A stretch of DNA of 27,433 bases from an uncultured Bacteroidales bacterium (GCA_964473775.1 CAYYQJ010000001.1:1-27433), one strand, 5' to 3'; positions 16,055-26,256 are shown, counted from the stretch's first letter. Notes: generated by a model from the letters alone, not told the origin. Numbers and translations are program-made.

Positions 16055-18694
16055 ATGAAAGCAAAAACAAATACCAATGATGATTCAAACCCTTTAAAAC
16101 CCGACACCACTCATTTTCCCATAGTAGGCATAGGCGCTTCGGCCGGCGGATTGGAAGCTTTGGAGTTGTTTTTCGAAAATATGCCTTCCAACAGTGGGAT
16201 GGCTTTTGTGGTAATACAACATCTCGACCCAACGCATCCGGGCATCATGCCTGAGCTTATGCAGCGCATCACCTCTATGAAAGTATATCAGGCCGCCGAT
16301 GCACTTAAAGTAAAGCCCAATTGCGTATATGTGATACCTCCCAACCGCAGCCTCTCTATATTAAATGGCGCCCTTCAATTGTTCGAACCCATCGAAATGC
16401 GCGGGCTGCGTCTGCCTGTGGATATCTTTTTTAAATCTCTGGCCGAAGATTGTCGCGAAAAAAGCATAGGCATCATACTTTCGGGCATGGGCTCTGATGG
16501 CAGCCTGGGGCTAAAGGCAATTAAAGAACAAAACGGCATAGTGTTGGTGCAAGACCCTAAAACAGCTAAATTTGATAGCATGCCACGCAATGCCAAAGAT
16601 GCTGTGATACCCGATATAGTGGCTGCCGCCGAAGCTTTACCGGCCAAGTTGCTCGATTTTTTAAAATATGTTCCTGTAAGAAAAACAGAAATAGAACTCG
16701 ATAGCAAAACCAAAAGCAATCTCGACAAGATTATCATTTTAATAAGAGAAAAAACCGGACACGACTTTTCTCTTTACAAAAAGAATACCCTGTTTCGCCG
16801 AATAGATAGGCGCAAAGGAGTGCATCAAATAGATAAGATACAAAACTACGTAAGGTTTTTGCAAGAAAACCCCAAAGAACTCGACATACTGTTTAAAGAA
16901 CTGCTGATAGGCGTAACCAGTTTTTTTCGCGATGCAGCCGTGTGGAACTATTTTAAAGAACAAATTTTTCCGCAAATGATATCCGAAATGCCCGATGGAA
17001 GTTTATTACGTGCATGGATACCCGCCTGCTCAACAGGCGAAGAAGCCTATACCCTGGCTATTATTTTTGTTGAAATGATAGAAGCAGAAAAAAAGCGCAA
17101 AAACCTAAGTTTACAGATATTTGCAACCGACATAGACCTCGATGCCATCGAAAAAGCCCGACGTGGGATGTTTGCTGCAAACATAGCTGCCGATGTTTTG
17201 CCCGAACGACTCAGCCGTTTTTTTACTTCCGATGGCGAAGGCTATCGCATCAACAATATCATACGCGAAATGGTGGTGTTTGCACCGCAAAATGTGATAA
17301 AAGACCCGCCGTTTACCAAACTCGATATATTATCATGCCGCAATATGCTTATTTATATGGAGCCCGAATTGCAAAAAAAACTGATGGCATTGTTTAACTA
17401 TAGCCTCAATCCTGGAGGCATCATGCTGCTCGGAACCGCCGAAACTCTTGGAACCAACAAAATAGGGTTTACAGAACTTGATAGCAAACTAAAATTTTAC
17501 ATGCGTTCAGAAAAAGCGCTTCCGGCCGAAATGATTGATTTCCCCAGCTCGTTTTATAATCGCAAAACCGACACCACGGCCACCAAAATATCAACAAAAA
17601 TTTTCGAGAACATACAAAACATCACCGACAATATGTTGCTACAGCGTTATGCTCCCGCCAGTGTGTTGGTGAATGATAAAGGCGACATTGTATATATCAC
17701 AGGCCGTACCGGAAAATACCTCGAACCCGTAGCAGGCAAAGCCAACTGGAATATATACTCTATGGCTCGCGAAGGCCTGCGACACGAACTTCCCGGAGCT
17801 TTTCGCAAGGTGATGCAAAATTTCGAACCCGTAAATCTGTATAATCTGAAAATAGGCACCAACGGCGGAACACAATATATTGATGTTACTTTACAACGGC
17901 TCGATAGTCCTATCACAATTAAAGGGATGATAATAGTAGTGTTTAAAGATGCCTCACCAGCTTCTGAACATGATTTGCCAGATGGAAGCCGCCAAAAACG
18001 AATCTCAACCGCCCAGCAGAAAGTGATGGAAATAGATTTGCAGCGTCACAAAGAAGAAATACAATCCATACGCGAAGAAATGCAAACCTCGCAAGAGGAA
18101 CTTAAATCAACCAACGAAGAACTACAATCAACCAACGAAGAACTGCAATCAACCAACGAAGAACTCACCACCTCTAAAGAAGAAATGCAAAGTCTGAACG
18201 AAGAACTACAAACGGTTAACCTCGAATTGCAAAGCAAAGTAAACGATTTTGTACAGGCCAATAACGATATGAAAAACCTGCTCAACAGCACCGAAATCGC
18301 AACTCTTTTCCTCGATAGAGATATGAACATACGGCGCTTTACTGATTCGGTAACCATGTTGTTTAAGCTCCGCAATACCGACATCGGCCGCCCGATTACC
18401 GATTTGGTAACCGATTTGCAATACCCCGACATAGATGACCATGCACGCAGAGTTCTTAAAACTCTGATTTCGGTTGAAACAGAAATAACCACCAAAAACA
18501 ATTTGTGGTTTACCATTCGAATCATGCCCTACCGCACCCACGACGACCGCATAGATGGCCTTGTGATTACATTTAACGATATTACCAAATATAAAAAACT
18601 GGAAAACGAACTCACCAAAGCAAACGAAGCCCTGAAGGCAGCAAAAGCAGAACACGACCTCACACATATTATTAAAAATAAAAAGGAAAAATAA
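16055..18694 (+). CDS. CheB methylesterase-CheR methyltransferase-PAS-coiled coil-PAS fusion
   Basis: CheB triad motifs GIGASAGG (Ser), IQHLDP (His) and SGMGSDG (Asp); CheR motifs WIPACSTGEEAYT, FATDID and SCRNMLIY; ELQSTNEE coiled coil; C-terminal PAS. No receiver or kinase domain. Confidence 0.93.
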   Translation: MKAKTNTNDDSNPLKPDTTHFPIVGIGASAGGLEALELFFENMPSNSGMAFVVIQHLDPTHPGIMPELMQRITSMKVYQAADALKVKPNCVYVIPPNRSLSILNGALQLFEPIEMRGLRLPVDIFFKSLAEDCREKSIGIILSGMGSDGSLGLKAIKEQNGIVLVQDPKTAKFDSMPRNAKDAVIPDIVAAAEALPAKLLDFLKYVPVRKTEIELDSKTKSNLDKIIILIREKTGHDFSLYKKNTLFRRIDRRKGVHQIDKIQNYVRFLQENPKELDILFKELLIGVTSFFRDAAVWNYFKEQIFPQMISEMPDGSLLRAWIPACSTGEEAYTLAIIFVEMIEAEKKRKNLSLQIFATDIDLDAIEKARRGMFAANIAADVLPERLSRFFTSDGEGYRINNIIREMVVFAPQNVIKDPPFTKLDILSCRNMLIYMEPELQKKLMALFNYSLNPGGIMLLGTAETLGTNKIGFTELDSKLKFYMRSEKALPAEMIDFPSSFYNRKTDTTATKISTKIFENIQNITDNMLLQRYAPASVLVNDKGDIVYITGRTGKYLEPVAGKANWNIYSMAREGLRHELPGAFRKVMQNFEPVNLYNLKIGTNGGTQYIDVTLQRLDSPITIKGMIIVVFKDASPASEHDLPDGSRQKRISTAQQKVMEIDLQRHKEEIQSIREEMQTSQEELKSTNEELQSTNEELQSTNEELTTSKEEMQSLNEELQTVNLELQSKVNDFVQANNDMKNLLNSTEIATLFLDRDMNIRRFTDSVTMLFKLRNTDIGRPITDLVTDLQYPDIDDHARRVLKTLISVETEITTKNNLWFTIRIMPYRTHDDRIDGLVITFNDITKYKKLENELTKANEALKAAKAEHDLTHIIKNKKEK
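18105..18165 (+). repeat. Coding 21-bp tandem repeat (x3) giving the (L-K/Q-STNEE)n heptads
   Basis: AATCAACCAACGAAGAACT is identical at 18105, 18126 and 18147. Confidence 0.95.
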
Positions 18695-18743
18695 AACCTA
18701 AACTGCCTGCCGCAGGAAAACAGACAGGCTTAAAAAGGGGCTG

Positions 18744-18776
18744 TTAACCCCAACCCCTTAAAAAGGGGCTATAACA
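18744..18776 (+). repeat. Left inverted repeat with an internal hairpin
   Basis: TTAACCCCAACCCCTTAAAAAGGGGCTATAACA, containing the hairpin CCCCTT-AAA-AAGGGG. Confidence 0.95.
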
Positions 18777-18801
18777 GATTGTAACAATTTATTAAAAAAA
18801 G

Positions 18802-19164
18802 ATGACAACTCAATTTTATAACTTACCGTACTTAAAAGATAAACGCATCAGTTTACGCAAAAATATGACTGAGGCTGAACTTGTATTATGGGAAGTATTA
18901 AAAGACAAGAAGCTTTGTGGGAGGAAATTTAGAAGGCAACATAGTATAGGACATTATATCGCAGATTTCTATTGTTCTTCTGAAAAGCTAATAATAGAAT
19001 TAGACGGGCAGCATCACTATCTGCCTGAAGGAATTGAAAAAGATAGGGAACGAGATACCCAACTTGCGTTAATGGGTAAAAAAGTTTTAAGATTTAAAAA
19101 CAAACAAGTATTGAATAATCTTACAGAAGTATTACAACAAATAAAAGCAGAATTTATCAAATAA
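18802..19164 (+). CDS. DUF559 (Vsr-like, PD-(D/E)XK) endonuclease domain protein
   Basis: LRKNMTEAELVLW, FRRQHSIGHYIADFYC, LIIELDGQHH, DRERD...G.KVLRF: the typical DUF559 motif set. Confidence 0.93.
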   Translation: MTTQFYNLPYLKDKRISLRKNMTEAELVLWEVLKDKKLCGRKFRRQHSIGHYIADFYCSSEKLIIELDGQHHYLPEGIEKDRERDTQLALMGKKVLRFKNKQVLNNLTEVLQQIKAEFIK

Positions 19165-19173
19165 ACGACACCG

Positions 19174-19206
19174 TGTTATAGCCCCTTTTTAAGGGGTTGG
19201 GGTTAA
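19174..19206 (-). repeat. Right inverted repeat
   Basis: TGTTATAGCCCCTTTTTAAGGGGTTGGGGTTAA, the exact reverse complement of 18744-18776. Confidence 0.95.
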
Positions 19207-19223
19207 AACCTTAAATCCTTCTC

Positions 19224-21332
19224 ATGAAAAAGAAAACCGTCACTCCTGCCCAACATCTTCGTAAGCAAGCCGAAGAAAAGCTGAAAACAAAGCAGCAAGG
19301 TACCCATGTGCAACTTTCGGAAGCCGAAATGCTGAAGCTTATACACGAGTTGCAAGTACATCAGATAGAACTAGAGCTGCAAAACGATGAGCTTATTCAG
19401 GCCAAAGAACAAATTGAAACTGCCGCAGAGAAATATACCGATTTGTACGACTTTGCCCCTACAGGATATTTTACTTTAAATACCGAAGACGAAATTATTG
19501 ATTTGAATCTGGCCGGAGCCGGCTTGTTGGGCAAAACTCGCTCGCAATTACGCAACAAACACTTTGCACTATATGTGTCTCACGAAACCAAACCTGATTT
19601 CCATCTTTTCATTGAAAAAACATATAATAGCACAACCACTCAATCGTGTGAGATCGCTTTATTGACAGAAACAGAATGGCTAATCTATGTTTATCTTACT
19701 GGAATTATTACCGAAAACGGACAACATTGCCTGCTCACAGCCATAGATATATCTGCGAGAAAACAAGCCGAAAAAGAAACCCTACTGGCCAAACAAAAAA
19801 TCGAAATAAGCGAAAACAGGTTTAAACTGGCTGTGGCAGCCGGCCTCTTAGGCATATGGGATTGGGATGTCGTAAATAATGAAATGATTTGGGACGACAG
19901 AATGTTTGAGTTGTATGGAATAACAAAAGATGTTTTTCCTAATAATATTGATGCCTGGACCAATGGACTGCACCCTGATGACAAACAATTAGCCCTCGAC
20001 GAATGCAATGCGGCTTTATCTGGGCATAAGGATTTCAACACAACATTTCGCGTAATACATCCTGATGGCAAAGTATTACACATCCGTGCCAATGGACTTG
20101 TAATCAGAAACAATGATGGGATTCCGCTTCGTATGCTAGGCATAAACAAAGATATAACAGAAAGCAAACTATTGCAGGAGCAACTTATTGTAGCCAAAGA
20201 AAAAGCCGAAGAAAGCGACCGTTTAAAAACCGCTTTTCTGCACAACATGAGCCACGAAATACGCACGCCTATGAATGCCATCTCAGGCTTCTCGCAATTG
20301 TTGATGAGAGATTATGGACAAGAAGAAAAACTCGCCAAATACATAAAAATAATAGACGAAGGCAGCAACGATTTACTCCATATTATAGATGATATACTCG
20401 ATATTTCCAGATTAGATTCAGGGCAGTTATCGTTTAAAATGGCAGAATGTGATTTATCGGTTTTGTTTGAAGAGATTACCAGCCAATTCAGCGAATATCA
20501 GCAGCGGGTCAACAAAACACACATTAGCTTTTCGATGAAAACCCTTTGTGGTAATAAGAATCCTATAATCATAACCGACAAGCGGAAATTGAAACAAATA
20601 TTCGTCAATCTGATTACCAATGCATTTAAATTTACCAATCAGGGTAGCATTGAGGGCGGTTGTAAACTGGAAAATAACACCCTGATGTTTTTTGTATCCG
20701 ACACCGGCATAGGCATCCCTGCCGACAAACAAAATTTTGTTTTCGAACGCTTTGCACAGTTAAAGCAAGACAAAACCCAAACCATCCCTGGCACAGGATT
20801 GGGGCTCTCAATTACCAAAGGTCTGCTAAGATTGCTTGGTGGAGAAATATACCTTGAATCAGTACCCGATAAAGGCAGTACTTTTTCGTTCACCATCCCT
20901 GGTAAACTAAAATATACTTTACCTAAAAAATCTTTTGATTCAGAAGAACAAACTGTATTTCAATTTTCAGGAAAAACCATACTCATAGTGGAAGATGAAC
21001 TGAACAGTGCTAAATATTTAAAAGCACTGCTACAAAATACCGGAGCAATAATATTAATGGCTGATAACGGAAAAGATGCTATCAGTTTAGCAAAAAACCA
21101 ACCAGTAGATCTAGTATTACTTGACATACAACTACCGGATATGGATGGTTACGAAACTCTGAAACAAATACGACAACAGAAACCGGATTGCAAAATTATT
21201 GCTCAAACAGCATTTGCAACTATGGGTGATAAGCAAAAAGCATTCGAATCAGGGTTCAATGATTATATTAGCAAACCGATTATGGCAAACTTATTGTTTC
21301 AAATGATTAATAAACACCTAACTCTGAATTAA
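19224..21332 (+). CDS. Cytoplasmic hybrid sensor histidine kinase (coiled coil-PAS-PAS-HisKA-HATPase-REC)
   Basis: N-terminal ELQVHQIELELQNDEL, two PAS domains, H-box NMSHEIRTPMN, N-box NLITNAFKFT, G boxes DTGIGI and GTGLGL, receiver LVLLDIQLPDMDG; no TM segment. Confidence 0.95.
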   Translation: MKKKTVTPAQHLRKQAEEKLKTKQQGTHVQLSEAEMLKLIHELQVHQIELELQNDELIQAKEQIETAAEKYTDLYDFAPTGYFTLNTEDEIIDLNLAGAGLLGKTRSQLRNKHFALYVSHETKPDFHLFIEKTYNSTTTQSCEIALLTETEWLIYVYLTGIITENGQHCLLTAIDISARKQAEKETLLAKQKIEISENRFKLAVAAGLLGIWDWDVVNNEMIWDDRMFELYGITKDVFPNNIDAWTNGLHPDDKQLALDECNAALSGHKDFNTTFRVIHPDGKVLHIRANGLVIRNNDGIPLRMLGINKDITESKLLQEQLIVAKEKAEESDRLKTAFLHNMSHEIRTPMNAISGFSQLLMRDYGQEEKLAKYIKIIDEGSNDLLHIIDDILDISRLDSGQLSFKMAECDLSVLFEEITSQFSEYQQRVNKTHISFSMKTLCGNKNPIIITDKRKLKQIFVNLITNAFKFTNQGSIEGGCKLENNTLMFFVSDTGIGIPADKQNFVFERFAQLKQDKTQTIPGTGLGLSITKGLLRLLGGEIYLESVPDKGSTFSFTIPGKLKYTLPKKSFDSEEQTVFQFSGKTILIVEDELNSAKYLKALLQNTGAIILMADNGKDAISLAKNQPVDLVLLDIQLPDMDGYETLKQIRQQKPDCKIIAQTAFATMGDKQKAFESGFNDYISKPIMANLLFQMINKHLTLN

Positions 21333-21552: not shown

Positions 21553-24500
21553 ATGAAAAAACTATTTATTTTAATTTTTGCTTTGCTCTTAAGCAGCTAC
21601 GGTTGGGGGCAAACGCTTTATGAAGGCTTTGACTACACAGTTGGTCCAAGTATTGGTGGAAACACAGCTACTACGGGAGGTCCGGTTAATAACTGGTACA
21701 CCCATAATAATACTAAAGTTGGATCTATTGATATTACAGCAGGCAACCTTAGTTATGCTGGTTTACAAACATCAGTAGGCAATAAAGTAAGACTTCCGGG
21801 AGATAATATTACTGTTCCGCGGGATGTTAACAGACCAATTACCGGAACAGGTGCTACTGTTGCCTACTTTTCTGCTTTAATAAACATTGTAGATGTTACT
21901 CAGTTATCTGCTGCTGGAGATTACTTTATGCATTTTGGTGCAACGTCAGGAATTACTAATACATCATTTGGTGGTCGTTTAGGGGCAAAATCAGTAAATT
22001 CTGGTTCTAATTTCCGTTTTATTATTCAAAACACATCTACAGGCACTCTAACATTTACTGAATTCGCTACTGATATGGTTTTTGGAACAACATATTTGGT
22101 AGTTGTAAAATATGATAAAAGTGCTTCGCCAACGGTTGCATCTTTATGGGTAAACCCTGTAAATCTTGGAGGAACAGAACCTGCAGGTTCTGTTCAAAAT
22201 AACTCTGGGACCGCTACTTTTGCAGCATTTGGTTCAATCTGTTTAAGAAATACTGCTAATACACCAAAAGCGGATATTGACGAAATAAGAGTTGGAACCA
22301 CCTGGGCATCAGTAACGCCGTTAAATGCCTCTACCCCTATAATATCTGTGCCTTCTCCTACTTCCTTAAGTGGTTTTTTAACCACCTCAGGCACCCCATC
22401 CACTGCACAAACTTTTACAGTTAGTGGCACAAGTATACAAGACTTTTTGGTAGTTACTGCACCTTCCAATTACGAATTAAGAGAAAGCGGAGTGGGTTCT
22501 TATGGCTCCTCTGTTTCATTTGCCCAAACTTCAGGAATAGTTTCTTCAAAAACTATAGAAGTTAGAATTGCTGCTTCTGCTGCTGTAGGTACACCATCTG
22601 GTAATGTGGTTTGCTCATCAACTAATGCTACCTCACAAAATGTGGCTGTAAGCGGCAATGTAACCTCCCCATTAATTTCAACTATTCTAGCTTTACCAAC
22701 TTCTTTCACCGGATTTACTTATGTTCAGGGCAGCGGACCTTCGGCATCTCAAACCTATAATCTTAGTGGCAGCAATTTAACTCCTGCCTCTGGAAATCTG
22801 ACATTAACAGGAAGCACCAATTATGAAGTTTCAACAGATAATACTAGTTTTTCAGTTAGTGCAACTGTGGCCTATACCTCAGGAACACTTGCTTCTACAC
22901 CTGTTTATATTCGTTTGAAATCAGGATTATCTGGTGGAAATTACAATAGCGAAAACATAGTTAATTCCGGTGGAGGAGCTACCTCAGTAAATGTAACCTG
23001 CAGTGGCAATATTACCATTCCTGTATCGGCAATAACTATTACCGGAGCATTAACTACTTTTGGGAATCAAGTTGTAAATACAATTTCTACTGAAAAAACT
23101 TATACTGTATCAGGTGTAAATCTCACAGATAATATTGTTATAACTCCTCCATCAGGATTTGAAATTTCAACTACAACAGGTTCGGGTTTTGCTTCAACAC
23201 CAATAACTCTTACTCGCACAGGCGGTGTTGTGGCAACTACAAGTATTTATGTGCGTTTTGCACCTATTGCTGTTCAAGCCTATTCAGGCAATATAACACA
23301 TGTTAGTTCCGGTGCAACAACACAAAATGTTGTAGTTAGTGGAACCGGTGTTTGCATTGCTGCTTCTTTACCTTTTGTAGAAGATTTTAATTATTCTGTA
23401 GGCGCATTATTAACTAATAATTGCTGGAATGCTCATAGTGCTGGAGGAACGAATCCTATTACAATTGTAACAAATTCAATATCCTATCCTAGTTATTTAT
23501 CATCTGAAATTGGTAATGAAACAAGCTTACCCAATACAGGAGAAGATGACAGCAGGATATTTGCCTCTCAAACTTCCGGGAACATTTATGCTTCATTTTT
23601 AGTAAATATTTCGGCCGCAACTACTACTGGAGATTATTTCTTACACTTAGGTCCTAGTAATATAAGTACTACCTTTAGAGGAAGAGTTTTTGTTAAAAAA
23701 GATAACAACAATAATGTTTTCTTCGGTATAGCTCAAAGTGGTACTGCAGCTTATTCGGCTACTCCTTACGCATTGGCAACTACTTATTTAATTGTATTAA
23801 AATACTCAATTGTTGCTGGAACAAACAATGATGTTGCCTCGATTTTTATAAATCCAACCTTAAATGCTGTTGAACCTATCAGTGGGTGGACTGTTAATAC
23901 GGATGCTACGACGGATATTGCTGATATCGGTACAATTGCTCTTCGACAATCCTCCGCTACAACCGCGCTCAAAATTGATGGTATCAGGGTTTCAACCGTA
24001 TGGTCAGATATTGTAGGTGCAATAAGCAGTACTCCTGAGTTAGCGGTTACACCAACTTCATTAACAGGATTTACTTATGTTCAGGGCAACGGGCCATCAG
24101 CAGAACAATCTGTTTCTGTTAGCGGACAATACCTTACAAATAATCTTACAATAACTCCTCCTGCAAATTATGAAATTTCTACAGGAACAGGTGCTGCATT
24201 TGTGGCAACCAGTCCAATCACATTAACTCCAACTTCAGGTACTGTTGCTGCAACACCTATCTATGTACGCTTGAAAGCCGGTTTAGCTTCAGCATCTTAT
24301 AATGGGGAGATTATTACAATATCATCAACAAGTGCTACTGATAAAACGGTAAGTTGTGATGGAACAGTGGATGCTGTTCCGGATCCTACTATCACGGTTG
24401 CTCCTACTTCACTATCTGGTTTTTCAGCCATAAGCGGAACTCCATCCTTATCTCAAAGTTATACTGTTTCAGGCTCTAATCTGGTTGACGATGTTACCAT

Positions 24501-26256
24501 TTTAGCACCTGCCAATTATGAACTCTCGACTGATAACGTTAATTTTACCGGAAGCTTATTATTAAATCATTCTGCTGGAATTATTACAGGTCAACCAATT
24601 ACAGTTTATGTACGTATTGCAACTTCTGCAACTGTAGGTGTTGCTAATGGAAATATTACTCATACCAGTCTTAATTTAACCACTGTTAATCTGGCCTTAA
24701 CAGGAAATGTTTATTATCCTGAACCAAGCAATCATGTTTCTAATTTTACTGCTGTAGCTCCAAATTATTCGTCGGTTACCGTTACATGGTCAGATAACGA
24801 TGGTGCACAAGCGGCTACAGGATATATGATTCTTGCCAATACTACCGGTGTATTTACACCACCAGTGGATGGAATTGCACCAACTATTGATGCAAATCTT
24901 ACCGATGGCACTAGTGTAGTAACTGTTAATCATGGAACTCAAACTTATACCTGGAATGGACTCATTAGCTCTTCACATTATTATTTTACAATTTATCCTT
25001 TTACAAATACCGGAATAAATATTAATTATAAAACCACACCTACAGCACCAACTGCTGATGTTACTACTCAGGTTTATGTTCAGCCTTTGGCCGCATGGAC
25101 TTTTGATGATCTACCAGTGACAGATGCAACAACAACTACTCCTACCTCTGTTGCTGCTAACGTAGGTATTGAAGCTGCTACTGCAATGTTATATGCTAAT
25201 GGAACTAACGGCTCTTCAACATGGTTGCCAAGTATATCCAATACTGAATTAAATTCTTTTTCAGGAACAACATTAAACGACCCAAGAGAAGGAAGTGCAA
25301 TTATAGCAGGGCAAGCCTATAGTCCAAATGGCGGGGCTTCACTGTCAGCTAACGGTAAAAGTATGGTTATAAAATTTTCAATGGCCAATTATAAGGATCC
25401 AATTTTAACTTATGCTACAAGAGGAACCACTTCTGGATTTACTTCTCAACAATGGGCCTGGAGTACTGATAACATTACATATACTAATTTTACAAACGTA
25501 ACCGGAATAACAACCTCTTTTGTGACAAAGACTATGGATATGAGTGGTATTGACCAACTTGACCAGGCTACTGATGTTTATCTCAGAGTTACTTTTACAG
25601 GTGCTACTAATTCAACCGGAAATAACAGGCTGGACAATCTTGTAATAAATGCAACAGAAGTTCCTTTAACAAAATCATTACAAGTCAAATTATTTTTGCA
25701 AGGCTTATATGACGCTACTACCAGTCAAATGAAAGAAGCAAAAGACATTTCTTTGAATCCAAAATGGGGTACTGGCATTGCAGATTTAGTAACAGTTGAA
25801 CTTCATGATGCTGTTGATTACACAAATGTTTTATATAGTTCAGGTAATATTTACCTAACTACTGATGGAATATCCACTGTTAGTGATATTCCTAATAATC
25901 TCAGTGATTCGTATTATATTACTATTTTACATCGAAACAGTATTGAAACAACATGTGCTACGCCAATTTCATTTATAGGACAATCTGTAGATTATGATTT
26001 TACAGCCTCTGCCAGCATGGCATTTGGCAATAATCTAAAGTATGAATCAACTGGTGTTTATTCAATTTATGGTGGTGATGCCAATCATGATGGAATAGTT
26101 GATGGTTCAGATATGGCTGCAATTGACAATGCCAGTACCTTATTATTATTAGGTTATAATACCGAAGATGTGAATGGTGACGGAATAGTTGATGGTTCAG
26201 ACATGGCTATTATTGACAACAATTCAACTTCAATTGTTACAAAACAAACACCATAA
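21553..26256 (+). CDS. Large secreted modular surface protein with a C-terminal dockerin-like module
   Basis: Signal peptide cleaved before Gln; two homologous beta-sandwich domains; five ~110-aa Ig-like repeats (TSL.GF...G.PS..Q...VSG.NL); an Fn3-like domain; a further beta-rich domain; a C-terminal paired Ca-binding repeat DANHDGIVDGSD / DVNGDGIVDGSD. No catalytic motif recognised. Confidence 0.9.
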   Translation: MKKLFILIFALLLSSYGWGQTLYEGFDYTVGPSIGGNTATTGGPVNNWYTHNNTKVGSIDITAGNLSYAGLQTSVGNKVRLPGDNITVPRDVNRPITGTGATVAYFSALINIVDVTQLSAAGDYFMHFGATSGITNTSFGGRLGAKSVNSGSNFRFIIQNTSTGTLTFTEFATDMVFGTTYLVVVKYDKSASPTVASLWVNPVNLGGTEPAGSVQNNSGTATFAAFGSICLRNTANTPKADIDEIRVGTTWASVTPLNASTPIISVPSPTSLSGFLTTSGTPSTAQTFTVSGTSIQDFLVVTAPSNYELRESGVGSYGSSVSFAQTSGIVSSKTIEVRIAASAAVGTPSGNVVCSSTNATSQNVAVSGNVTSPLISTILALPTSFTGFTYVQGSGPSASQTYNLSGSNLTPASGNLTLTGSTNYEVSTDNTSFSVSATVAYTSGTLASTPVYIRLKSGLSGGNYNSENIVNSGGGATSVNVTCSGNITIPVSAITITGALTTFGNQVVNTISTEKTYTVSGVNLTDNIVITPPSGFEISTTTGSGFASTPITLTRTGGVVATTSIYVRFAPIAVQAYSGNITHVSSGATTQNVVVSGTGVCIAASLPFVEDFNYSVGALLTNNCWNAHSAGGTNPITIVTNSISYPSYLSSEIGNETSLPNTGEDDSRIFASQTSGNIYASFLVNISAATTTGDYFLHLGPSNISTTFRGRVFVKKDNNNNVFFGIAQSGTAAYSATPYALATTYLIVLKYSIVAGTNNDVASIFINPTLNAVEPISGWTVNTDATTDIADIGTIALRQSSATTALKIDGIRVSTVWSDIVGAISSTPELAVTPTSLTGFTYVQGNGPSAEQSVSVSGQYLTNNLTITPPANYEISTGTGAAFVATSPITLTPTSGTVAATPIYVRLKAGLASASYNGEIITISSTSATDKTVSCDGTVDAVPDPTITVAPTSLSGFSAISGTPSLSQSYTVSGSNLVDDVTILAPANYELSTDNVNFTGSLLLNHSAGIITGQPITVYVRIATSATVGVANGNITHTSLNLTTVNLALTGNVYYPEPSNHVSNFTAVAPNYSSVTVTWSDNDGAQAATGYMILANTTGVFTPPVDGIAPTIDANLTDGTSVVTVNHGTQTYTWNGLISSSHYYFTIYPFTNTGININYKTTPTAPTADVTTQVYVQPLAAWTFDDLPVTDATTTTPTSVAANVGIEAATAMLYANGTNGSSTWLPSISNTELNSFSGTTLNDPREGSAIIAGQAYSPNGGASLSANGKSMVIKFSMANYKDPILTYATRGTTSGFTSQQWAWSTDNITYTNFTNVTGITTSFVTKTMDMSGIDQLDQATDVYLRVTFTGATNSTGNNRLDNLVINATEVPLTKSLQVKLFLQGLYDATTSQMKEAKDISLNPKWGTGIADLVTVELHDAVDYTNVLYSSGNIYLTTDGISTVSDIPNNLSDSYYITILHRNSIETTCATPISFIGQSVDYDFTASASMAFGNNLKYESTGVYSIYGGDANHDGIVDGSDMAAIDNASTLLLLGYNTEDVNGDGIVDGSDMAIIDNNSTSIVTKQTP

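Follow-up and report, generated by a model that had tools for sequence, protein, structure and literature searches.

The window, which is the whole stretch of DNA analyzed here (27,433 nt; GCA_964473775.1 CAYYQJ010000001.1:1-27433), comes from an uncultured Bacteroidales bacterium and carries a gene for a 120-aa DUF559 (Vsr-like PD-(D/E)XK) nuclease at 18802-19164 on the + strand. The gene is the sole long open reading frame (ORF) between the two arms of a perfect inverted repeat, 18744-18776 and 19174-19206. As the original prediction, made from the sequence alone, had stated, these arms are 33 nt long and 100% complementary; a repeat search of the window places them 397 nt apart. The same prediction described a CCCCTT-AAA-AAGGGG hairpin in each arm, and this was also recovered: the palindromic core of the left arm, CCCCTTAAAAAGGGG (18754-18768, no strand assigned), has a 6-bp stem and a 3-nt loop, and the palindrome of each arm, folded as single-stranded DNA, gives a modest hairpin (~-5.3 kcal/mol). 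With up to 3 mismatches allowed, the 23-nt core of the arm was found at 2 sites only in the 27.4-kb window, and 100 shuffles gave 0 matches. Upstream of the cassette lies a CheB methylesterase/CheR methyltransferase/PAS fusion gene, here CheBR (879 aa, 16055-18694, + strand; Pfam CheB_methylest, CheR_N, CheR and PAS_10), and downstream a PAS/HisKA/HATPase/receiver hybrid histidine kinase gene (702 aa, 19224-21332, + strand; domains from Pfam), in synteny with L010, L016, L110 and L112 (L numbers denote the loci compared). The window corresponds to contig NODE_1067 in ENA assembly ERZ4223863, and an identical locus, in the same orientation, is present on a 559-bp contig from a second sample (L009).

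Beyond the hairpin, each arm contains a third block, AACCCC on the C strand or GGGGTT on the G strand, which is a mirror copy of the stem. The left arm is in C-strand orientation (+ strand); its unit, AACCCC-AA-CCCCTT-AAA-AAGGGG-CTATAAC at 18746-18775, has the third block outermost, pointing away from the gene. The right arm (- strand), with its G strand read on +, is a purine-type three-block triplex motif, GTTATAG-CCCCTT-TTT-AAGGGG-TT-GGGGTT, with the unit at 19175-19204; its third block is again outermost and the arm ends 17 nt ahead of the kinase start codon. Directly left of the left arm is a degenerate, 5′-truncated extra unit (18703-18743, + strand), in which a small hairpin, CCTGC-C-GCAGG, is followed by GGCTTAAAAAGGGGCTG. 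In this truncated unit, 18729-18742 (CTTAAAAAGGGGCT) repeats 18757-18770 in direct orientation, and the unit, compared by eye, resembles the inner part of the 52-nt long-form arm of L023. An intrinsic terminator role was rejected, since neither arm scores as a terminator on the + strand, and a known RNA family was rejected as well, since Rfam gave SAM-II at chance level only (E=1.2). PIT elements are described in the literature as having no terminator activity in E. coli. The original prediction had overlooked the extra truncated unit, the third mirror block, the non-terminator nature of the arms and the known BoxC/PIT/triplex-motif class considered below.

A metagenome scan yielded 80 loci encoding DUF559 relatives with 41-86% identity. 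The loci were picked through a few peptide patterns; some near-duplicates are among them, the obvious ones having been removed. For each gene, the score was that of the strongest ungapped inverted repeat with one arm within 200 nt upstream and the other within 200 nt downstream, and control ORFs were drawn from the same loci. A score of at least 14 was reached by 36/69 DUF559 genes and by 0/105 other ORFs (Fisher p=2e-18), and 25 of the 69 DUF559 genes scored at least 20. The expectation that DUF559 homologues would be flanked on both sides by lineage-specific inverted hairpin repeats was therefore borne out. Close homologues (64-86% identity) carry the unit of the window, which in these loci reaches, within 200 nt of DUF559, 64x the density seen elsewhere. 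Distant homologues (41-57% identity) have different arm sequences, from 23 to ~168 nt long, most with the three-block design, e.g. L053 (CCCTCTCCC-TCT-GGGAGAGGG-TA-GGGGTGAGGG), L059, L060, L068 and L081, and within the 3-kb flanks examined these arms sit almost only beside DUF559. With a sequence-blind motif finder that requires three exact 6-nt blocks, 36 of 75 DUF559 genes were found to have a three-block motif no more than 250 nt away, its density there being 19x that of the remaining 249 kb (p=2e-36), and the third block pointed away from DUF559 41 times and toward it 16 times (p=0.0013). The association between DUF559 genes and flanking repeats is general and highly specific.

The same signal may be recognized in earlier work. 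DUF559 is among the genes most enriched for flanking inverted repeats (odds ratio 14.3), there as predicted targets of programmed inversion (Milman et al., 2023, PMC9881135), and we read this enrichment as the flanking-repeat signal described here under a different interpretation. The table of that study (PMC9881135) also lists 'endonuclease domain-containing protein' (9.6), a name given to DUF559 homologues in some source annotations, and CheB (12.0); the CheB signal might come in part from DUF559 cassettes adjoining CheB/CheR fusion genes. A full-text search, with subscription-only papers outside its reach, found no literature that links DUF559, PF04480 or ycjD to flanking repeats.

The exact 33-mer of the arm occurs at 7 loci in ~5 other metagenome-assembled genomes (MAGs), mostly of Bacteroidota, and 0/7 of these encode DUF559 within the sequence examined; the sequence is therefore a dispersed repeat, and often forms inverted doublets, so that the further paired copies that had been anticipated do exist. 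Mapped over all fetched loci, the unit is 30 nt long, AACCCCAACCCCTT-N-AAGGGGCTATAAC. In its gene-free inverted doublets, the AACCCC ends face outward and a spacer of 65-115 nt separates the two copies; doublets were found in L002, L003, L006, L022, L024 and L027. Doublet spacers are alike only within one genome (87% over 54 nt in L027), and the arms are conserved between genomes. A MITE (a miniature transposable element with inverted repeats) derived from the gene was rejected, since the spacers have no similarity to DUF559 and are alike only within a genome. No RAYT or Y1 transposase gene was found among the neighbors of gene-free units, which are ordinary genes.

Some of these loci have peculiarities of their own. 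An IS4-type DDE gene lies ~390 nt from the L002 doublet, which we judged coincidental. L002 itself (CAYXTQ010000104.1) is a 3.3-kb contig binned as 'uncultured Methanosarcinales archaeon' that carries a perfect Bacteroidota-type doublet, and is probably a mis-binned bacterial contig. Composite repeats in some MAGs use the 30-nt unit as one module (L001:6790-7400, L005:30-400, L004:1240-1440 and L007:6060-6260). One such repeat of ~300 bp is a tandem duplicate in L001 and recurs in L005 at 91% identity; in the L004/L007 composite the unit is followed by a second conserved structured segment (GCCCTCCTTT.TAAGGAAC...GGGAGGT).

Read on the G strand, the unit CCCCTT-TTT-AAGGGG-TT-GGGGTT consists of a pyrimidine block, its purine complement and a mirror G/T block. 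With an exact-match finder, both arms conform to the published ITxF definition (Y, R and mirror R/T blocks of at least 6 nt, loops of 1-6 nt; PMC4666352). In the family of the window the block lengths co-vary, the G/C runs being 4/4/4 in the window itself, 5/5/5 at L033/L035 and, for one unit of L024, 3/3/3, and compensatory stem variants occur (CCCATT...AATGGG in L024, CCCCCTT...AAGGGGG in L033). Triplex motifs of E. coli (TMECO) were described with the consensus CCCTCNCCC-N3-6-GGGNGAGGG-N3-GGGNGAGGG and are present in 23 copies in MG1655, five as inverted pairs (Holder et al., 2015, PMC4666352). According to these authors, no transposase or integrase was ever found near triplex motifs, and triplex formation in vivo has not been demonstrated even for TMECO (PMC4666352). 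By its three-block design, the unit of the window matches this class, as the local Bacteroidota version of BoxC/PIT/'triplex motif' repeats. The motifs at the distant DUF559 loci L053, L060, L063, L064 and L075 do resemble TMECO.

The order CheBR-DUF559-PAS kinase is common to the window and to L010/L011 (DUF559 86% identical), L016 (80%) and L113 (85%); P0003 and P0308 are both found on one further contig, a co-occurrence on the contig only. When full-length proteins were compared, DUF559 was 85-86% identical whereas the adjacent CheBR was 67-73% identical; the gene is therefore under purifying selection. In relatives the kinase gene normally comes right after CheBR. L110, L111 and L112, whose CheBR is 75-77% identical to that of the window, form one clade (85-89% identity within it) from which the cassette is absent. 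L110 and L112 have a conserved 51-52-nt CheBR|kinase junction with no unit, which represents an empty site, and in L091, a more distant relative, the CheBR and kinase genes overlap by 4 nt. Empty CheBR|kinase junctions in relatives, which the original prediction called for, were thereby found. The comparison was made with CheBR relatives rather than kinase orthologues, and a strict empty site could not be sought through the kinase, which has no close orthologue (best match 62% identical over 56% of the protein). The DUF559 gene shows at this conserved junction a presence/absence polymorphism of the kind looked for in homing endonucleases, and one ancient gain plus one loss explains the pattern.

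The junction of L111 (2958-3565; CheBR 77% identical) holds instead a gene of PF05635 (23S_rRNA_IVP, a four-helix-bundle protein, 127 aa). This gene has its own upstream inverted arrays, of AGGCAGT/TGCCTAA type, with 50-60-nt arms that are 77-81% complementary, and a further copy downstream, which suggests that small genes with flanking repeats of their own form a wider class in operon junctions of Bacteroidota. Other close-family DUF559 genes are also found at operon junctions. In L103/L024:2468-3269 an otherwise conserved suf operon is interrupted between sufD and sufS by a DUF559 homologue that has a doublet on either side, and in L093 a homologue lies between the type I restriction gene hsdS and a helix-turn-helix (HTH)/M78 peptidase pair. 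The window protein and two homologues each occur, as identical proteins, in one context only across many samples. Vertical inheritance was judged from synteny and such single contexts, and diverged paralogues may coexist in one genome.

The units around the gene vary among orthologous loci. They are arranged as partial (+), (+), gene, (-) in the window; as (+), gene, partial (-), (-) in L010; and as (+) and (-), gene, (-) and partial (-) in L016. In L113 (3411-4045), two tandem (-) units lie upstream and four perfect tandem 47-nt (-) units downstream, all in one orientation, and the array looks like a recent local amplification, not an inverted bracket. At L024 and L027 the gene is flanked on either side by a complete doublet. 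Where arms are long and idiosyncratic (52 nt in L023, ~168 nt in L076), both sides are identical or differ at only two positions. Since unit number and orientation vary among orthologous loci, the arms are not fixed transposon ends inherited passively. We conclude that (i) the cassette is not a recent insertion and is not recently mobile; and (ii) next to a stable gene, units are created, duplicated, inverted and homogenized time and again.

The only DUF559 gene of E. coli K-12 is ycjD, which adjoins fabI. In its 3′ region (L090:11190-11450, corresponding to K-12 NC_000913.3 ~1351189-1351449), a degenerate BoxC-like hairpin interrupts or overlaps the gene's 3′ end and is followed by a second copy of the last ~38 nt of the gene, and then by TMECO number 9. 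This canonical BoxC/TMECO copy lies ~150-170 nt downstream of ycjD, in the same orientation relative to the gene as the right arm of the window, and was listed without comment as lying between fabI and ycjD (Holder et al., PMC4666352 supplement). The chance of TMECO-ycjD adjacency is ~0.8% (18 TMECO regions, ~4300 genes). Among 5426 complete E. coli genomes, the median number of matches to a 73-nt BoxC segment is 15 per genome, and ycjD is present in 3378, nearly always in single copy; at its site ycjD alternates with the eefRABCD operon (PMC12817139). BoxC and ycjD were compared in a 60-row sample spread across the ranking, comprising 59 chromosomes. Those with the ycjD-adjacent locus had 12-26 BoxC matches (median 18, n=37), and those without it 1-15 (median 5.5, n=22), a roughly threefold difference in medians. 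The higher BoxC count fits a role of ycjD, but it is confounded by phylogroup, with no phylogenetic correction, and is only a lead.

The window protein matches Pfam PF04480 with 118.9 bits (gathering cut-off 20.6; E=1.2e-34), and its nearest solved relative in a PDB search is the uncharacterized N. gonorrhoeae protein 3HRL (E=8e-17). Across 78 aligned homologues, YcjD and 3HRL among them, residues E26, W30, Q46, I53, D55, C58, E66, D68, G69, H72 and R97 do not vary, and D81 shows 99% conservation. On this pattern, the putative active site D...E-x-D-G-x-x-H is intact and nuclease activity is predicted.

Elsewhere the window encodes a polysaccharide-biosynthesis cluster, a TPR protein and a 1567-aa ORF. 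The latter, at 21553-26256 directly 3′ of the kinase gene, is without a Pfam match at E≤1e-5. Within the CheBR gene, a 21-nt periodic repeat, present six times at 18050-18234, encodes (S)TNEELQ heptads; it specifies a coiled-coil linker that joins the CheR and PAS domains and is no mobile repeat. No recombinase, transposase or invertase gene was found in the 27-kb window, Pfam recognized no DDE, HUH, serine or tyrosine transposase in it, and the only Pfam match between the arms is DUF559.

From the observed anatomy of the cassette, dispersal of the unit, association of DUF559 genes with repeats, synteny, unit turnover and empty sites, we propose that the locus may represent a resident nuclease-repeat partnership, by analogy with RAYT-REPIN systems, in which DUF559 would be the partner enzyme of the repeat. 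We assign this reading a probability of roughly 0.5. It implies that DUF559 binds or cuts the motif and that its activity generates or maintains the repeats, which we infer. By analogy with Vsr, which recognizes a distorted site and nicks beside it (PMC3424549), DUF559 would recognize the three-block motif in folded or extruded form and introduce a nick there or beside it. The units would then be duplicated, inverted, homogenized and now and then dispersed through host repair, recombination or template switching. Such an effect would be greatest in cis, beside the enzyme's own gene, which would account for the accumulation of units on both flanks and for the lasting identity of the two arms; preferential action near their own gene is common for cis-acting DNA enzymes. 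The DUF559 gene, with no obvious promoter of its own, would ride on the cheBR-kinase operon transcript, and would be inherited vertically and kept by purifying selection, as are RAYT genes in RAYT-REPIN systems. The likeness to RAYT that was originally drawn holds for this persistent, vertically inherited type of system and not for an active insertion sequence. A broader version, in which DUF559 nucleases are the missing partner enzymes of BoxC/PIT/triplex-motif repeats throughout bacteria, including E. coli BoxC via ycjD, and form a second, independent REP-RAYT-like symbiosis, is put forward more tentatively.

Several points weigh against the proposed partnership. Dispersal is the weakest part of the model and needs an unspecified host pathway, because a hydrolytic PD-(D/E)XK nuclease cannot rejoin DNA alone. 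About half of the DUF559 loci are without a flanking repeat at the thresholds used, and the multi-copy status of the unit in the lineage of the window is judged from loci across MAGs. E. coli genomes that lack ycjD still hold some BoxC copies, with the copy-number difference confounded by phylogroup as noted above. The family may also have unrelated functions, because a role in T:G mismatch repair has been ascribed to another DUF559 protein, Caulobacter VsrA (PMC12907096). Finally, the relatives on viral contigs (12 found, more distant) are mostly without flanking repeats (2/11 with them). Given these few viral relatives with repeats and the absence of any match to the unit in 2.9 million viral contigs, the association belongs to chromosomal DUF559 genes; on the same evidence a phage origin was rejected.

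Among the alternatives, the one that survives best, although we consider it unlikely, is a passive or regulatory association. The repeats would have been spread by another process, and either the cassette landed in a doublet or the paired arms serve the gene, with DUF559 doing an unrelated job such as Vsr-like repair or defense. In a panhandle variant, a 33-bp RNA duplex that is cut by RNase III or masks translation would insulate the operon from the nuclease gene lodged in it, in the manner of the excision of 23S rRNA intervening sequences (IVS). The predicted RNA fold of 18735-19215 pairs the two arms from end to end (z=-7.3). DUF559 runs in the same direction as its upstream neighbor in 28/32 loci, and the next start codon follows the outer end of the downstream arm by 13-19 nt in several contexts. 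The PF05635 gene at the same junction in L111 belongs to the 23S rRNA IVS protein family and has its own repeat arrays, and an unrelated job would suit both the link of VsrA to mismatch repair (PMC12907096) and the PADLOC result, which consisted of weak matches only (DpdF and a methyl-directed restriction endonuclease). A passive or regulatory association leaves unexplained, however, why one three-block design surrounds DUF559 in unrelated lineages and 0/105 neighboring genes, and why the E. coli motifs lie on one side only; moreover, the direct tandem units on both sides in L113 cannot form a panhandle.

An autonomous mobile element appears improbable. Here the arms would be terminal inverted repeats, DUF559 a mobilizing or homing nuclease, and the doublets MITE-like deletion derivatives or empty targets. 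Perfect arms and a compact cassette (382-444 nt between arms in 10 loci) would be expected of such an element; close homologues occupy at least three unrelated junctions (cheBR|kinase, sufD|sufS and hsdS|HTH), empty junctions exist, and the Vsr/DUF559 clan includes the homing endonuclease I-Bth0305I (PMC3424549). No target-site duplication was visible, however, since direct repeats flanking the arms were absent in 12 loci (the TTAA at the ends in the window is palindromic and absent elsewhere), and no identical or near-identical copies were seen in different contexts. The gene is syntenic in four relatives and better conserved than CheBR, a pattern explained by one gain and one loss; the arms, whose orientation differs from one orthologous locus to another, are not fixed ends; and neither the dissimilarity of doublet spacers to the gene nor the absence of the unit from viral contigs suits an autonomous element. 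The minimal selfish mobile element of the original prediction does not agree with this synteny, the conservation of the gene above that of its neighbor, the single contexts, the missing target-site duplication and the direct tandem units of L113, whereas its predictions on dispersal, flank association and empty junctions hold. Programmed DNA inversion, in which the inverted repeats would be crossover sites that flip the DUF559 gene, is barely credible: DUF559 is enriched among predicted targets (Milman et al., 2023, PMC9881135), a prediction from inverted repeats alone, but no invertase or other recombinase gene is present in the window, the gene points the same way in L009 and in each of the four orthologous loci, and at some loci the units are in direct orientation only.

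DUF559 is one of the commonest uncharacterized nuclease domains in bacteria. Repeats of the BoxC/PIT/triplex-motif class, under study since the early 1990s, are present in hundreds of bacterial genomes and linked to genome rearrangement, with their origin and spread unexplained (PMC4666352). The link between the two gives both the nuclease and the repeat class a testable function. If the proposed partnership is true, (i) persistent nuclease-repeat partnerships, so far represented by RAYT-REPIN only, would extend to another enzyme fold and DNA structure; (ii) the appearance of DUF559 as a false 'programmed inversion' target in inverted-repeat screens would be explained; and (iii) the origin, homogeneity and instability of triplex-motif repeats, including E. 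coli BoxC via ycjD, would be accounted for.

Compared with known systems, the window protein shares its fold and catalytic core with Vsr and the DUF559 proteins E. coli YcjD, 3HRL and Caulobacter VsrA. It matches the YcjD equivalog model with a score below the model cut-off. In contrast to Vsr, it has no counterpart of the N-terminal part of that enzyme, and no cytosine methyltransferase gene is adjacent in the window; a flanking-repeat context is unreported for Vsr. Among intergenic mosaic arrays, the Neisseria dRS3 repeats that flank RS segments and the enterobacterial BIMEs may offer a parallel, as short hairpin inverted repeats that bracket variable 50-150-bp segments. Unlike the window, these elements have repeat sequences of their own and an IS110-like recombinase or RAYT as partner enzyme.

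The BoxC/PIT/TMECO repeats (Bergler, 1992; Hoyne and Maher, 2000; PMC4666352) are short, intergenic and multi-copy, like the unit of the window, and have in common with it three consecutive blocks with short loops and frequent close inverted pairs. They are without an associated transposase, their loci are prone to rearrangement, and one E. coli copy adjoins the DUF559 gene ycjD; a systematic DUF559 link is not described in the BoxC/TMECO literature. The unit of the window is AT-richer and shorter than TMECO, with 6-nt blocks (CCCCTT/AAGGGG/GGGGTT) vs. 9-nt blocks (CCCTCNCCC/GGGNGAGGG/GGGNGAGGG), and unlike TMECO carries a conserved non-triplex tail, GCTATAAC. It fails to match the TMECO consensus, and so shares the design without being a TMECO copy.

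The REP/REPIN-RAYT systems (Nunvar, 2010, PMC2817692; Ton-Hoang, 2012, PMC3333891; Bertels and Rainey) differ in their enzyme, since RAYT is an HUH Y1 (IS200/IS605-like) transposase and the window protein a ~120-aa PD-(D/E)XK (Vsr-like) hydrolytic nuclease. They differ also in their repeat: REP has a GTAG or CGTC tag 5′ of the palindrome, whereas the unit of the window starts with AACCCCAACCCC and has no such tag, and the third mirror block and the long doublet spacers (65-115 nt) set it apart from REP/REPIN. In both cases, a dispersed short hairpin repeat often forms inverted doublets, one associated gene is flanked by copies of that repeat, and this gene is conserved at a stable locus, in the case of the window probably by vertical inheritance, and goes with a lineage-specific repeat.

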